In this document: positions 18,246 to 63,494 of the stretch, in pieces
How positions within the stretch are numbered: position 1 is the first letter of the stretch
How the letters are laid out: each line of letters opens with the position of its first letter
From: Phage NC-G
Sequence record: MK310184
DNA: 64,000 bases
Reading direction: 5' to 3' (one strand)
Made by a program: the position numbers and the translations under genes
The notes under the pieces: model-generated
What the model saw: the letters and a program-made list of their open reading frames with translations, nothing else
What the model was told of the DNA's origin: nothing
The model's database searches: none

Positions 18246-18860
18246 TCAGTAAGAAAGAACGGAAAGATTCCAAATGGTGTAATTATTCCATTTAGGATTT
18301 CTCTCAATAGAGTCTACGCGCAGCGTAGTTCCCGCAGGGAACATCATCTCATCTTCATCATTGATTAATTGTAAGTTTGCTACACGGGTAGATTCAGGAA
18401 ATGCGCCTGGGAACTCTTCAGGGGGCGCAGCACATAACATTTTAAAGATTTCTTCCTGATAATTGTACACAAATGGCGCATCATTAATACAAAAGATATT
18501 AAATGTGCCGTAGAAGTTATAAGATGCGAAATTCCTTGCCACGTTGAAGTCTTTAGAGAAGCTCATCACACGGTCGAATTCAATTACTGCACCTACACAC
18601 ATTGTGGACTCTAGATACTTCATAGTCTTTTTAGATATGCCGCGATAGAGCTTATCAGGCACTACAGAAGTCATATTCTTACGAATGATTTTGTTCAAAG
18701 TTTCTTGGATAGAATCCGGTTTATTTTCCATACACTGCCAGAGCGTGCTCTGTTCTAAATCAGAATACACCTCATCAATTTCTATCTGAGTATTCTCACG
18801 GAAATCATCGCATTTGGCATTGTTGATAAATTCTGCTAATTTATGGCTTGGGTATAACAT
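18246..18860 (-). CDS. modA: ADP-ribosyltransferase, Mod family
   Basis: 204 aa; R-S-E triad context (LYRG, SFS, EDEMMF); synteny after dda; A/B assignment by position only. Confidence 0.65.
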   Translation of the reverse strand: MLYPSHKLAEFINNAKCDDFRENTQIEIDEVYSDLEQSTLWQCMENKPDSIQETLNKIIRKNMTSVVPDKLYRGISKKTMKYLESTMCVGAVIEFDRVMSFSKDFNVARNFASYNFYGTFNIFCINDAPFVYNYQEEIFKMLCAAPPEEFPGAFPESTRVANLQLINDEDEMMFPAGTTLRVDSIERNPKWNNYTIWNLSVLSY

Positions 18861-18885: not shown

Positions 18886-18915
18886 ATAGTACCACACGCT
18901 TCCTTGCCTGTAAAC
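18886..18915 (-). promoter_or_regulatory. early promoter
   Basis: -35 GTTTAC 18910-18915, 18-bp spacer, -10 TACTAT 18886-18891. Confidence 0.55.
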
Positions 18916-19484
18916 TAAAAATCCAACATTTTTAAATGAATTGTTTTATACTCGATTTCGTACGGGTCCCTTTTGACGGTTTCGATTGCAACAATCTCAA
19001 ATCGCGATAGACTAGAGACCATGAACTCACATTCGGTTTCAACCATATCATAGAGGTCAATACGGGTTTCATCTATTTCAAGCTCATCCACATTCCCTGC
19101 AAGAACAAGGTCGATAGCATGGTTGTAGTAGTCAAAAATGAAGGGTGCATTCCTGAGACTTAAAATGGTTTTTGTTCCATATTCCCAAGCCCCTGCGAAC
19201 TGTCGAGCCTGGGAGTATTGAGTACTAAAAGAAGTAACTCGACCAGGAGACCATTGACACCCTACTGAAAGGAGCTCTAATTGCTCAAGTTCTCTGGTGG
19301 TAATCCCACGATACAACTCTACCGGAACCGCTGAAGTAACATGCTTGCGAACCAGTTTGTCGAGGTCGTAATGGAAGTTAGGGTCTTTTTTGGCGTCCAG
19401 GCATTTTTCTAAAAGATTCTGTTCATGTTTTGAAAATTTGGAATTGATTCGGTCTTGATAAAGACATTTTTGTTCGATGTTCAT
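18915..19484 (-). CDS. modB: ADP-ribosyltransferase, Mod family
   Basis: 189 aa; R-S-E triad context (LYRG, TSFST, ETECEF); paralog of adjacent gene. Confidence 0.65.
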   Translation of the reverse strand: MNIEQKCLYQDRINSKFSKHEQNLLEKCLDAKKDPNFHYDLDKLVRKHVTSAVPVELYRGITTRELEQLELLSVGCQWSPGRVTSFSTQYSQARQFAGAWEYGTKTILSLRNAPFIFDYYNHAIDLVLAGNVDELEIDETRIDLYDMVETECEFMVSSLSRFEIVAIETVKRDPYEIEYKTIHLKMLDF

Positions 19485-24188: not shown

Positions 24189-24629
24189 TTAACCTCGGTT
24201 CATAAAGGCATTAAAAATCTGGTCGTCAATTGAATAAACTGGAGCTTCCAGAATTTTCAACAGGCTATTTTTGATATACTTGCTAGGGATATCCATATTA
24301 ACGCAGTCGTTCAATTCGTTGTCAGGGAGGATATCTTTAAATTCGAATCCTTCAAATTCAACCTTGTCGGGAAAACCATCAGCGAAAAAATAAACCAATT
24401 GGTGCATTGTATTGCGCGAAAATAATTTAGACTTAACTGCAATAAGTTCTTGCCATTGGTTTAATTCTTTGTTAAGAAGTTTATGGGCAAATACAATCCT
24501 ATCATCGCTATCAACAATAAAATAACCCAGGTATTTATGGTCGTCGCTCCAAAACATCCTGTATGCTTGTGCATTTGGATTTTTACAACGAAGTTTTTTG
24601 ATAACCAAATTTCTGTTAATCTTATTCAC
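24189..24629 (-). CDS. hypothetical protein (146 aa)
   Basis: track ORF, co-oriented and tightly packed. Confidence 0.55.
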   Translation of the reverse strand: MNKINRNLVIKKLRCKNPNAQAYRMFWSDDHKYLGYFIVDSDDRIVFAHKLLNKELNQWQELIAVKSKLFSRNTMHQLVYFFADGFPDKVEFEGFEFKDILPDNELNDCVNMDIPSKYIKNSLLKILEAPVYSIDDQIFNAFMNRG

Positions 24630-25619: not shown

Positions 25620-25937
25620 TTAGATTTCCTCGCAGAAGGCCCATTCAGCATGATAAACCGTAGCGCCTTTAGTATCATTTAAACAAACCACATCCACCGG
25701 AGCAATTACGCGATAAAGACGAGGTTCTCCTCCCACTGAACGAGCAGCTCGTCCAGCATAAATCTTAGCCAAACCGATGTCCTCAGTAAAGAATACACGA
25801 TTCAGGTTTTTCTTACGACCAGTTTCAGACAGAACTCCTGTTTCCTCAGGAGGACAAAGCATATTACCAATATTAGCAACACTACAACTTCCGTGATAAT
25901 ACACTTTATATTCTGCTTTACAGTCGATGGTTTTCAT
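25620..25937 (-). CDS. hypothetical protein (105 aa)
   Basis: track ORF trimmed from TTG to ATG 25937 with GGAGAA RBS; first gene after promoter. Confidence 0.55.
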   Translation of the reverse strand: MKTIDCKAEYKVYYHGSCSVANIGNMLCPPEETGVLSETGRKKNLNRVFFTEDIGLAKIYAGRAARSVGGEPRLYRVIAPVDVVCLNDTKGATVYHAEWAFCEEI

Positions 25938-25961
25938 TTTGTTCTCCAAGTTGATAGGTCT

Positions 25962-59995: not shown

Positions 59996-60568
59996 TCAAC
60001 TCGTTATTTCTATCCAGTGCTTCCTGCACAATGACACGTAAGAATCGTTGCCACCCATAGAAACTTGGGCGCCGTCCTTAATTGCGATACCATCTTGGAC
60101 CCTAGCAGTCATAGTAGCTTTACGGCCACAATGGCACACACCTTTGTACTCAACGAGTTTATCTGCTGTAGCGAGTAATTCAGCAGAGCCAGGAAACAGT
60201 TTACCCTGAAAATCAGTTCTTAGTCCATAACACATAACCGGAACATTATAATTGTCTACTATCTTCGCCAGTTGTTTTATCTGTGCAGGTTCTAAGAACT
60301 GTGCTTCATCCACAAACACGCAGTGGATATCTTTTTGAGATTCAGCCCAACGATAGAACTCGTATAGGTCCATATCCGGAGTCACGGCATTAGCCTCTTG
60401 ACTAATCCCTATACGAGACGAAATGCTATGGCTTGATTCTCTATTGTCTATCGCAGGCTTTAAAAGGAGTACGCCCATACCACGTTCTTTGTAGTTATGA
60501 GCGGCCGTTAGCAATGAAGCAGTCTTCCCGGAATTCATCGCTGCATAGTGAAACATCAAACTTGCCAT
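59996..60568 (-). CDS. tk: thymidine kinase
   Basis: 190 aa; P-loop AAMNSGKT, catalytic FVDEAQF, C-terminal zinc site (CHCGRK...C). Confidence 0.9.
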   Translation of the reverse strand: MASLMFHYAAMNSGKTASLLTAAHNYKERGMGVLLLKPAIDNRESSHSISSRIGISQEANAVTPDMDLYEFYRWAESQKDIHCVFVDEAQFLEPAQIKQLAKIVDNYNVPVMCYGLRTDFQGKLFPGSAELLATADKLVEYKGVCHCGRKATMTARVQDGIAIKDGAQVSMGGNDSYVSLCRKHWIEITS

Positions 60569-60577
60569 ATTACCTTC

Positions 60578-60763
60578 TTAAAGACTATTTACATAAGCAA
60601 TTAATTCGTTTTCTTTCTCATCAAATCGATTAGCAAATTCTTCCTGATGGTCGGCATCTATCGGGCCGTATTCATCGTAAAAAGCGTTTGCTTCTGTATG
60701 TTCATCCAAAAGCTCATGGATAAGCTCAAACAATTTGTCTTTCTGTTCTTTACTCAAACTCAT
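60578..60763 (-). CDS. hypothetical acidic protein (61 aa)
   Basis: track ORF. Confidence 0.45.
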   Translation of the reverse strand: MSLSKEQKDKLFELIHELLDEHTEANAFYDEYGPIDADHQEEFANRFDEKENELIAYVNSL

Positions 60764-60966
60764 TTAGGTTCACCATATCGCACAAATTTAGGGTGTTCAC
60801 AATCACCAGAATGGAGACCTTCACCTTCATGGTTAGGACATCCTTTATTAGAACAGTACCACCAGTAATCAAATCCACATTCCATTTCATCGTTGCATAA
60901 AACTGCGATTACTGGCCATTCGCATTTTTCACATTTGGCCGTTTTAAGAATTCGGGCTTGGCTCAT
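60760..60966 (-). CDS. zinc-ribbon protein (68 aa)
   Basis: track ORF; CEKCEW...CSNKGC...C motif. Confidence 0.45.
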   Translation of the reverse strand: MSQARILKTAKCEKCEWPVIAVLCNDEMECGFDYWWYCSNKGCPNHEGEGLHSGDCEHPKFVRYGEPK

Positions 60967-61405
60967 AATCCACCACCACTAAATTAATATCAGGAGTAAA
61001 CAAATTAATCAATTGATAAACCTTGTCCCAATCACCACCAGCAATACCACAACCAATGCGAGGAATATAAATTCTCGGTTTAAACAAAAGACCCTTTGCA
61101 GTACGGTTTAATTCTATCATACAGTTTACTAAAGCACCGTAATCAAGATTAGGACCTGGTTCATATTGGGTGTAAAGATTGTAGCAAATTTGCCCGTTAT
61201 TACCCGTGGCTTGAGTAAATGTTCCGAGTTTTGCTGCATCACCTAAATAAGTGGTTTTATCAATAGCAAGAATAGGTGGATACGCTTTAGCCAATTGACC
61301 CGCTACACCTGAACCCATAGTATGAAAACAGTTGCACCCGTGTGCAACATTATTACCTTGAAGAAACAGGGCGACGATATCGCCCTTAATATAATCAATA
61401 ATCAT
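60944..61405 (-). CDS. macro-domain protein (ADP-ribose binding / hydrolase)
   Basis: 153 aa; macro-domain glycine-rich motifs (NVAHGCNC...MGSGVAGQL and IPRIGCGIAGGDW). Confidence 0.65.
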   Translation of the reverse strand: MIIDYIKGDIVALFLQGNNVAHGCNCFHTMGSGVAGQLAKAYPPILAIDKTTYLGDAAKLGTFTQATGNNGQICYNLYTQYEPGPNLDYGALVNCMIELNRTAKGLLFKPRIYIPRIGCGIAGGDWDKVYQLINLFTPDINLVVVDYEPSPNS

Positions 61406-61758
61406 TTAGAGTTTAATCCTCGATTGTATGAGTCAACGAGTCTGTCTACCATAGACGCGCACATTTCTTTGTACTTTTTATCGGATGGAACACATTCAGT
61501 AACGTTTAGACGTTGCTCGTATCTTTTAGAAAGAGTTTTCTCTTTCATTCGGCGATGCTCTACGTCGTTCTGACCATCTTTAAAAGCAGCTGTGATTTTT
61601 GAACTGAATTCGATAATGCATTCAGTATTACTTGGATGACAATAATCTTTTGCTGTACGGGTAGCATACTCAACAATTGAATTATTGCTATCATCAACTT
61701 GTGACGCTAATACTCCCGGAGCGATCAACATAAGCGCTATAGTCATCTGTTTAATCAT
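61402..61758 (-). CDS. secreted hypothetical protein (118 aa)
   Basis: track ORF; N-terminal signal peptide. Confidence 0.5.
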   Translation of the reverse strand: MIKQMTIALMLIAPGVLASQVDDSNNSIVEYATRTAKDYCHPSNTECIIEFSSKITAAFKDGQNDVEHRRMKEKTLSKRYEQRLNVTECVPSDKKYKEMCASMVDRLVDSYNRGLNSK

Positions 61759-62322
61759 TTAATATACCGCCTCAAACATCTTTTTAGATTTTAGGTAATT
61801 GGCCTTTTCTAGAACCTCAGAAGCATATTTACTGCCTGCTTTGACATTCCAGCCCGCATTATAAGAAGCAATCGCTTTTCTCAGGTCACCTTTGTGAACA
61901 TCAATCCAATAAGACAGTTCAATGTAGGCCCAAGAGGCACTGTTCTGTCGTTTTTGGACCATACGAATTATTTCTTTGTCTGACATCTTCCAACCCACCT
62001 GTTGAACACGACTTCTTAACGTAGGCAAGTAATTTTGGAACATGCCATAAGCATGGTGCTTATCTTTATTTAAACCTTGATTAATTCCGGCGGATGATTC
62101 CTGCCATAGTAATCCGGCCATAATATATCCTAATCCTTTTTGATTAGGGTTTTCTTTGAACTTTCCCGACTTTTGGTATTGTTCACCGAAAGCATACGCA
62201 TAATGTAAATTATCGAGCTGGGTTTCTGTAAATACGGGTTCTGCTGCACTTACAGAAAACGAACCACACATAATAGCCGCTATTAAAGAATATTTAAGTT
62301 TTTTTAGAAAAATCATAATCAA
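61759..62322 (-). CDS. lytic transglycosylase (SLT domain) with signal peptide
   Basis: 187 aa; SLT motifs (LLWQESS, YGMFQ, SYNAG). Confidence 0.6.
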   Translation of the reverse strand: MIMIFLKKLKYSLIAAIMCGSFSVSAAEPVFTETQLDNLHYAYAFGEQYQKSGKFKENPNQKGLGYIMAGLLWQESSAGINQGLNKDKHHAYGMFQNYLPTLRSRVQQVGWKMSDKEIIRMVQKRQNSASWAYIELSYWIDVHKGDLRKAIASYNAGWNVKAGSKYASEVLEKANYLKSKKMFEAVY

Positions 62323-63028
62323 TAAGTCCTCGGTAATCTACATTAGGGAAGCCGTTCTTAATTGCGATTTTACTAAATCTTCCACACTTGAGCTTATTAT
62401 TATCTACCCATAATTTATATAATTGTGAATACATCGGTTCATGCCATATAGGGGATTTACGCAAAGAGGCTTTTTTCCTTTCTATAGTTTCTTTAGAATT
62501 TTGTATGGCTTTAAATTTTTGTCTATTTTCAGGATTTTCAAAATACTTAACCCGTTTTTCAGACATTTTAGCTTTTACTTTTGGCGAATTTAAAATTTCT
62601 TTGAGCCGTTCTTTAGAGCCTTCCTTTTCAAAATACTTTATTAAAGCCATTGAATGAGCAGCCCTATTTTCCTTTTTAGAGAAAAATAAAATTTTATTAA
62701 TAGATTGCAATTTTGAAAATGATTCTTTAGCCAACTTATAATTTTCAGAATCTACAAAATAAGACCTTTGTTTTGAATTTGAAGTAGAGCTCATATTTAA
62801 CCAGGCAAAATTCAACCCATAGTGGTTTGGATTAGCTTTGGCTAGATACATATGGGCCAAATAATGTTCATCAGCATAAAGCTCAACTAAATTGTCTTGA
62901 GTGTCAGGACCACCAACACAACTCGGAATTATATGATGCTTTTCTGTATAGGCGTCATTAGGTGTATCCCTAGATAAGGCCGCATTTATTATTTTATAGT
63001 AGTCATATGGATATTTTATAGTTTCCAT
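62294..63028 (-). CDS. HNH homing endonuclease
   Basis: 244 aa; HNH motif EKHHIIPSCVGGPDTQDNLVELYADEHYLAHM; basic repeat-rich C-terminus. Confidence 0.7.
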   Translation of the reverse strand: METIKYPYDYYKIINAALSRDTPNDAYTEKHHIIPSCVGGPDTQDNLVELYADEHYLAHMYLAKANPNHYGLNFAWLNMSSTSNSKQRSYFVDSENYKLAKESFSKLQSINKILFFSKKENRAAHSMALIKYFEKEGSKERLKEILNSPKVKAKMSEKRVKYFENPENRQKFKAIQNSKETIERKKASLRKSPIWHEPMYSQLYKLWVDNNKLKCGRFSKIAIKNGFPNVDYRGLIDYDFSKKT

Positions 63029-63035
63029 ACTGTCC

Positions 63036-63494
63036 TCACAAGTAAATTACTTTCGTGCTGGTTTTACCTTCTAAACGTTTAGAGTTAACAAATGCCATAC
63101 GGCATTTAAGGGAATATCCTTTATCAGGGTGTTTACGGTCTACTGTCATACCTAACCATAAGGTTTTATCGGTAATCTCAAGACGCAGTGGGCGATACAC
63201 TTTACCTGGGACAATTTCAGATTCTACATCAGGCAGAGGTTCCTGGATTAAAAATTCATGGATTTCTTTAACATGGTTATGGAGTTGCTTGAATAAAGCA
63301 AAAACGTATTTTTCGTCAATTTCACGTTGGATAGCACGGTCCAATAGGTGATTAGAGTACTTAATAAAGAAAGCTGGGACTCCACTCTTAATGGCGGCTT
63401 TTTTGATGGATGTATTCAGTTCACGAAATTCGGTTTCGAACTGACGACGTAATTTGTTGCGGCGGATGAATACTTCTGAATTAATTTCTGACAT
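63036..63494 (-). CDS. regB: RegB site-specific endoribonuclease
   Basis: 152 aa; blocks matching recalled T4 RegB (EVFIRRNKLRR.FE.EFR, HLLDRAIQREIDE.YVF, RLEITD..LWLG). Confidence 0.85.
   Translation of the reverse strand: MSEINSEVFIRRNKLRRQFETEFRELNTSIKKAAIKSGVPAFFIKYSNHLLDRAIQREIDEKYVFALFKQLHNHVKEIHEFLIQEPLPDVESEIVPGKVYRPLRLEITDKTLWLGMTVDRKHPDKGYSLKCRMAFVNSKRLEGKTSTKVIYL

Follow-up and report, generated by a model that had tools for sequence, protein, structure and literature searches.

A stand-alone macrodomain gene of phage NC-G is an orthologue of T4 tk.4 (adfM) and a probable DarT2 counter-defence factor

Judged by its sequence and gene order, the minus-strand gene at 60944..61405 of phage NC-G (sequence record MK310184; "the window" is the whole stretch of 64,000 nucleotides that was analysed) is the Dhakavirus-type orthologue of T4 tk.4 (adfM). 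Its product is probably a macrodomain ADP-ribosyl-glycohydrolase, encoded in the early region, with which the phage would counter the toxin DarT2 in the manner of an orphan antitoxin, and its chemistry is likely to be of the SCO6735/BT1257 type. The tk.4 family, its domain and its DarTG2 role in T4 are already known, and the NC-G gene is a further orthologue: annotations of the family go back two decades, the counter-DarTG2 role in T4 was reported in 2025, and the biochemistry of PhiKZ AdfM followed in 2026. The remaining interest lies in an SCO6735-like glutamine active site and in a recurrent linkage of the family to NAD-salvage and NADAR genes.

The gene and its neighbours in the window are as follows.

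63036..63494: regB
62294..63028, minus strand: HNH homing endonuclease, 244 aa, PHROG 655
61759..62322: vs.1
61402..61758: vs
61402..61405, minus strand: ATGA junction at which the vs stop and the tk.4 start overlap, read from the sequence
60944..61405, minus strand: tk.4/adfM orthologue, a 153-aa stand-alone macrodomain protein of 153 codons with an ATG start (the coordinates include the stop codon)
60760..60966: Zn-binding tk.3-like ORF
60578..60763: DUF7438
59996..60568: tk

Full-length identity of 54% to T4 Tk.4 (73% positives, E 3e-64, residues 1-149 against 1-153), together with a T4-like gene order, identifies 60944..61405 as the tk.4 orthologue. The order in the window is regB - (HNH) - vs.1 - vs - tk.4 - tk.3 - DUF7438 - tk, as compared to regB - vs.1 - vs - tk.4 - tk.3 - tk.2 - tk.1 - tk in T4, so that both genes occupy the same slot between vs and tk.3/tk. 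The two proteins, of 153 aa in NC-G and 155 aa in T4, share the HGCNC, NLYTQ and IGxGI motifs and differ within the phosphate loop, which reads IGCGIAGGDW in NC-G and IGAGIGKGNW in T4. The DNA around the gene is ~95% identical to that of JS98/JS10-like (Dhakavirus) T4-type coliphages, and vs/tk.4/tk synteny is kept in ~30 T4-type loci, among which macrodomain identity falls as low as ~36%. The HNH ORF is an insertion between vs.1 and regB, at a place where T4 has no gene; 29 nt of it are shared with the beginning of vs.1, and alignments to most close relatives fall into two pieces over the region.

The family reaches well beyond the T4 type. Relatives were found by tblastn in 2,739 of 50,697 phage records spread over many genera, and members are frequent among Felixounavirus, T5-like, Pseudomonas, Campylobacter and Acinetobacter phages. 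Some of these relatives are already labelled 'macro domain protein', 'phosphatase', 'Poa1p-like' or 'O-acetyl-ADP-ribose deacetylase', and the T4 RefSeq record says of Tk.4 that it 'contains A1pp phosphatase motif'. The macrodomain gene is short or split in some T4-type phages (L029:5001-5246, L031:5210-5446, and proteins P0043, P0064, P0068 and P0074), the shortened copies being 92-130 aa long or represented by partial tblastn matches, which suggests that the gene has at times decayed into a pseudogene, as adfN is reported to have done in RB69.

The gene model can be trusted, because the N-terminus of the product is that of T4 Tk.4. The 4-nt vs/tk.4 overlap is identical in T4, and on the basis of this ATGA junction tk.4, an early-region gene, presumably shares a transcript with vs, which lies upstream of it, and is probably coupled to vs in translation. 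A promoter and terminator scan around the gene returned 15 sites against 15.1 expected from shuffles, nothing above chance, and thus provides no independent evidence of expression; two 'terminator-like' hairpins within the macrodomain coding sequence are probably due to chance. A plus-strand ORF of 83 aa at 61322..61573, which overlaps the macrodomain gene, was considered and found to be without support. At the other end, the Zn-binding tk.3-like ORF (Pfam Phage_zn_bind) begins before the macrodomain gene has ended, so that the two share 23 nt (60944..60966), as compared to 4 nt for tk.4/tk.3 in T4, and the tk.3-like gene is absent altogether from several close relatives (L004, L005, L027).

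A sequence-only reading of the window had described the product as a macro-domain protein on the strength of two glycine-rich motifs, and this description holds: both motifs are present (NNVAHGCNCFHTMGSGVAGQL and RIGCGIAGGDW), and Pfam and the fold agree with it. The Pfam Macro domain PF01661 scores 33.1 bits against a gathering cutoff of 22 and is matched over profile positions 2-117 of 118, and the protein falls in PHROGs family phrog_335, labelled 'phosphatase', at 3e-67. The fold is three-layered, alpha/beta/alpha, with a central mixed beta-sheet. The conserved glycine-rich loops suggest that the protein binds ADP-ribose. Among solved structures, those closest in sequence are BT1257 (2fg1/2afc), SCO6735 (5e3b), Poa1p (6lf*), the Mtb DarG macrodomain (5m3i) and human TARG1. 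Comparison with known structures gave scores of 18.5 for BT1257, 17.6 for Poa1p, 17.1 for Mtb DarG, 16.4 for TARG1 and 16.2 for T. africanus DarTG, with coronavirus, alphavirus, MacroD and PARP macrodomains at 13.7 or less, and Foldseek is consistent with this. The neighbours are thus TARG1, DarG, SCO6735/BT1257 and Poa1p, rather than MacroD, PARG or viral Mac1, and structure comparison and Foldseek together place the protein among stand-alone macrodomains of the ALC1-like (TARG1/DarG/SCO6735) class and not the MacroD class.

Which member of this class the protein resembles was examined at the active site, where conservation was counted over 66 diverse homologues and columns were assigned from MAFFT and HMMER alignments and from the published structure-based equivalence. 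Four segments matter.

61328..61345, minus strand: residues 21-26, AHGCNC, with His22 equivalent to SCO6735 His24 and Asn25 to SCO6735 Asn27
61298..61318, minus strand: residues 30-36, MGSGVAG, the first glycine-rich loop of the macrodomain ADP-ribose pocket
61166..61180, minus strand: residues 76-80, NLYTQ, with Gln80 at the position of the catalytic Lys84 of TARG1 and Lys80 of DarG
61028..61063, minus strand: residues 115-126, PRIGCGIAGGDW, the phosphate-binding loop

In the first segment H22, G23 and N25 are invariant (66/66), and the equivalent of N25 is essential in SCO6735, as Asn27 (PMC9411070), and has been mutated in PhiKZ AdfM, as Asn23 (PMC13309987). G33 of the first glycine-rich loop is likewise invariant (66/66), and unvaried in all ten proteins of MAFFT alignment A2, while G31 is kept in 64 of the 66 homologues. 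N76, Y78, T79 and Q80 vary in none of the 66, and Q80 aligns with SCO6735 Gln85 and BT1257 Gln82 in both the profile-to-PDB and the MAFFT alignments. P115, G118 and G120 of the phosphate-binding loop are invariant (66/66 for the two glycines) and A122 is found in 61/66; Gly120 corresponds to SCO6735 Gly128, and Ala122, at the position of TARG1 Asp125, corresponds to SCO6735 Ala130 and BT1257 Ala128. The pairs Gln85/Ala130 in SCO6735 and Gln82/Ala128 in BT1257 have been described (PMC5087735). As aligned, the active site of the T4-type family is therefore SCO6735/BT1257-like (Gln) and not DarG-like (Lys).

The absence of catalytic residues had been named as the observation that would count against the macrodomain idea, and here the outcome is divided. 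The Lys84/Asp125 dyad of human TARG1 is replaced by Gln80/Ala122, and Lys80 of DarG (M. tuberculosis 5m3i, T. aquaticus 5m31/5m3e, T. africanus 7omu) by Gln80, so that these residues are indeed missing; their loss does not refute activity, however, because the Asn, Gln and Gly that are essential in SCO6735-type enzymes are invariant. MacroD and DarG, which the same reading had proposed as comparators, proved not to be the closest relatives: the protein belongs to the TARG1/SCO6735/BT1257 branch, and the catalytic lysine of DarG is lacking. The family profile ranks them accordingly, with 80 bits for BT1257 and 68.7 for SCO6735, as compared to 47 and 43 for DarG macrodomains.

Likeness to SCO6735 and BT1257 has its limits. 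Glutamine at the TARG1 Lys84 column, Ala122 at the Asp125 column and the equivalents N25 and G120 all mark the subclass, but identity to SCO6735/BT1257 is ~26%. The Val/Ile at position 25, which has been called SCO6735-specific (PMC9411070) and proposed to act through its backbone, is replaced by the invariant Gly23 (HGCN as compared to HVCN/HICN), and the Lys-bearing mobile loop is not found, since QYEPGPNLDY, set against QHGMKTGSKGAPVRY, is 4-6 residues shorter and has neither Lys89 nor Lys94. An electropositive groove is not indicated either, as judged by net charge: the NC-G protein has a net charge of -2 and a pI of 5.5, as compared to 9.7 for SCO6735 and 8.4 for BT1257. Val25, the longer lysine-bearing loop and a basic charge are among the features to which the activity of SCO6735 on DNA has been attributed, and their loss weighs against the proposed function. 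An argument from acidic charge against activity on DNA was considered and set aside, since the pI of PhiKZ AdfM is 5.05, and that protein is proven to hydrolyse DNA-ADPr. SCO6735 also differs in setting, being a chromosomal, DNA-damage-inducible gene, whereas the NC-G gene is phage-encoded.

Neither DarG itself nor PhiKZ AdfM is a good identity for the protein. NCBIfam DarG NF048014 is matched at 23.5 bits (2.8e-5) against a cutoff of 250, and only over the macrodomain (positions 3-149 of 338); the PADLOC DarG model is matched at 1.2e-7. Both matches are weak but specific and run over the whole domain, which is in keeping with the proposed function. DarG was rejected because these weak matches are confined to the macrodomain, and because the protein has neither the catalytic lysine nor a C-terminal DarT-binding domain, being a single domain, while its gene is flanked by vs and the Zn-binding tk.3-like gene with no darT adjoining. 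PhiKZ gp104, the AdfM of a chimallivirus and a DarG2-like antitoxin (Cell Rep 2026), is likewise a phage-encoded stand-alone macrodomain; it counters DarTG2, strips DarT2-made ADPr from DNA in vitro, rescues cells from DarT2 and, as a difference from the NC-G protein, is imported into the phage nucleus (PMC13309987). Against Mtb DarG it reaches 90.7 bits, and it carries the PTK lysine, whereas its relation to the NC-G protein is remote (23 bits in BLASTP, over the C-terminal 44 residues only; 96% probability in hhalign) and the active site is of a different type. The pairwise hhalign alignment of the two proteins is shifted by one residue at the Gln/Lys column, and the MAFFT and HMMER alignments were used instead. 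Since gp104 is DarG-type and the T4-type lineage carries Gln, two separate macrodomain lineages have been named AdfM, and the collision could mislead both annotation and mutant design.

The function proposed here derives from the T4 orthologue. A role against DarT-type toxins that modify DNA had been suggested for the NC-G protein from its sequence, and for Tk.4 this role has been found by experiment: in HIDEN-SEQ no T4 gene but tk.4 was significantly depleted on a DarTG2-expressing host, and a clean tk.4 knockout sensitised T4 to DarTG2, whereupon the gene was renamed adfM, for anti-DarT factor Macrodomain (preprint 10.1101/2025.11.20.689424). The knockout phenotype thus establishes the counter-DarT idea for the orthologue. 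In keeping with this, it had been reported earlier that T2 and T4 without the NADAR enzyme AdfN, which acts against DarTG1, stay resistant to DarTG2 (PMC11825919). The removal of ADPr from DNA by Tk.4 was put forward by the authors as an inference that 'seems likely' (preprint 10.1101/2025.11.20.689424). For the NC-G orthologue, at 54% identity, we infer by analogy both the same DarTG2 phenotype and protection by enzymatic means. A precedent for the chemistry is SCO6735, an efficient hydrolase of thymidine-linked ADPr on DNA that protects both E. coli and S. coelicolor against DarT (PMC9411070) and is inactivated by the mutations Q85A/Q85E, N27S and G128E (PMC9411070, PMC5087735).

The mechanism may be pictured as follows. 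Infection would release the host DarT2 toxin, which would ADP-ribosylate thymidines of single-stranded phage DNA at TNTC motifs and thereby block replication. The phage enzyme would bind the ADP-ribose in its glycine-rich pocket, formed by the MGSGVAG and RIGCGIAGG loops, and Gln80, held by Asn25, would position the distal ribose and a water molecule, in place of the catalytic lysine of DarG and TARG1. Hydrolysis of the ribose-thymine bond would then yield free ADP-ribose and replicable DNA. Because the site is glutamine-based and SCO6735-like, with no DarG lysine, the mechanism should not be copied from DarG or from PhiKZ AdfM, and SCO6735 is the appropriate model.

Protection might instead be stoichiometric, the protein binding and inhibiting DarT2 in the manner of ICP1 AdfB or of catalytically dead SCO6735, with the pocket unused for hydrolysis. 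ICP1 AdfB acts through direct interaction (PMC11481870), hydrolysis by Tk.4 has been proposed as likely (10.1101/2025.11.20.689424), and SCO6735 Q85A inhibits DarT in vitro by binding, more strongly than DarG K80A or TARG1 K84A (PMC9411070), so that protection without catalysis is possible in principle. The pocket residues H22, N25, G33, Q80, G118 and G120, however, are kept in 66/66 homologues from very diverse phages, and such invariance suggests that catalysis or ADPr binding has been under selection, and not a surface fitted to one particular toxin; the protein, at 153 aa against the 338 positions of the DarG model, also has no counterpart of the C-terminal DarT-binding domain of DarG. Stoichiometric inhibition is accordingly judged quite unlikely. 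Of the relatives that have been characterised, the nearest are TARG1 and SCO6735, and each of them cleaves Glu/Asp-linked protein ADPr, which raises by analogy a further alternative, namely a protein Glu/Asp-linked mono-ADP-ribosyl hydrolase that would reverse the action of host defence ADP-ribosyltransferases and protect from DarT2 only as a side activity. The requirement seen in the T4 screen was specific to DarTG2 (10.1101/2025.11.20.689424), and we regard this alternative as more improbable still.

Other loci in the window also bear on ADP-ribosylation.

18246..18860 and 18915..19484, minus strand: two tandem Mod-type ADP-ribosyltransferase genes, ~33% identity to T4 ModB
24189..24629, minus strand: ORF in the slot of T4 61.2 (adfA, anti-DarTG1), between primase gp61 and spackle, PHROG 8539

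The Mod-type genes named by the sequence-only reading are present, and both are strongly diverged from the T4 enzymes. Their presence would be in keeping with the suggestion that the macrodomain resets the phage's own ADP-ribosylation of host proteins by Alt, ModA and ModB, but that suggestion found no support. Alt, ModA and ModB modify arginine, and Arg-ADPr is removed by ARH/DraG-type enzymes; TARG1-class macrodomains are not known to act on it. Moreover, 42 kb separate the macrodomain gene from the mod genes, to which it is not linked, and its family is common in phage groups that are not T4-type, all of which makes a resetting role the least credible of the readings considered, and extremely improbable.

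As for other anti-DarT functions, NADAR (AdfN) was sought in the NC-G window and none was found. The ORF at 24189..24629 shares with T4 AdfA an identical 14-residue C-terminal tail, SIDDQIFNAFMNRG, and is otherwise unrelated to it, and the Pfam AdfA model scores 16.3 bits, under its cutoff of 27. This looks like a cassette swap in which the 3' end was kept, and NC-G may lack a functional canonical AdfA. A further ORF at 25620..25949, considered as an NAD-related fold because of a YHGS motif, was dropped, as it has no Pfam match and belongs to PHROG 2110, of unknown function.

Outside the T4-type phages, genes of the family often lie within NAD-salvage clusters. The order NMNAT-Nudix / NADAR / macro / Nampt occurs at L066:3455-6989, and NMNAT-Nudix or Nudix / macro / Nampt at L079:1299-4671 and L036:11-2597, while Prs-like and Nampt/NAPRT-like neighbours surround the macro gene in an Acinetobacter Saclayvirus (L002:904-4474) and a Vibrio T5-like phage (L003:3132-6138). 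A Nampt-like gene lies in the flank of 12 of the ~47 non-syntenic viral loci. No paper joining NARP1 and a macrodomain was found in the literature searched. Such neighbourhoods, together with the likeness to Poa1p, are what favours soluble ADP-ribose derivatives, rather than DNA adducts, as the main substrate: the protein might be a Poa1p-like ADP-ribose-1''-phosphate phosphatase, an O-acetyl-ADPr deacetylase or a degrader of ADPr-derived immune signals or toxins, or, in a variant, a supplier of free ADPr to NAD+ reconstitution, and an NAD-metabolism view has been argued in general by Iyer et al. 2022. Against it, the sole reported genetic phenotype of the T4 orthologue is DarTG2-specific (10.1101/2025.11.20.689424), and no NAD-salvage genes adjoin the gene in the NC-G window. 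The context itself is two-sided, since NADAR is common to the same NAD-salvage neighbourhoods and is the DNA-ADPr hydrolase AdfN (PMC11825919), so that these neighbourhoods fit counter-defence islands equally well. NADAR, the AdfN-type anti-DarT1 fold, adjoins a Tk.4-family gene in other phages, as would be expected for counter-defence. A main role on soluble derivatives is on balance unlikely, though less so than the alternatives above, and it is not mutually exclusive with action on DNA adducts.

NC-G, a JS98-like phage, is predicted to be DarTG2-resistant through its tk.4 orthologue, and N25, Q80 and G120 would be the key residues for mutation, mutant designs taken over from DarG or PhiKZ AdfM being ill-suited to this site. 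More widely, the linkage of the Tk.4 family to NAD-salvage and NADAR genes suggests islands of ADPr/NAD counter-defence. A broader joint reading, which we offer tentatively and consider doubtful, takes the family as a phage-specific glutamine-type offshoot rather than a captured DarG, and as a dual-specificity eraser coupled to NAD+ repair. Catalysis would then be independent of lysine, proceeding through water and the protein backbone, and would, by analogy with SCO6735, act on thymidine-ADPr in DNA as well as on Glu/Asp-ADPr in proteins. If this were true, the Tk.4-type AdfM would be a broad eraser directed against several ADP-ribosylating defences, the ADPr and NAD breakdown products released would feed NAD+ reconstitution wherever the macro gene neighbours NMNAT-Nudix, NADAR and Nampt/Prs-like genes, and de-ADP-ribosylation and NAD+ repair would constitute one functional module.
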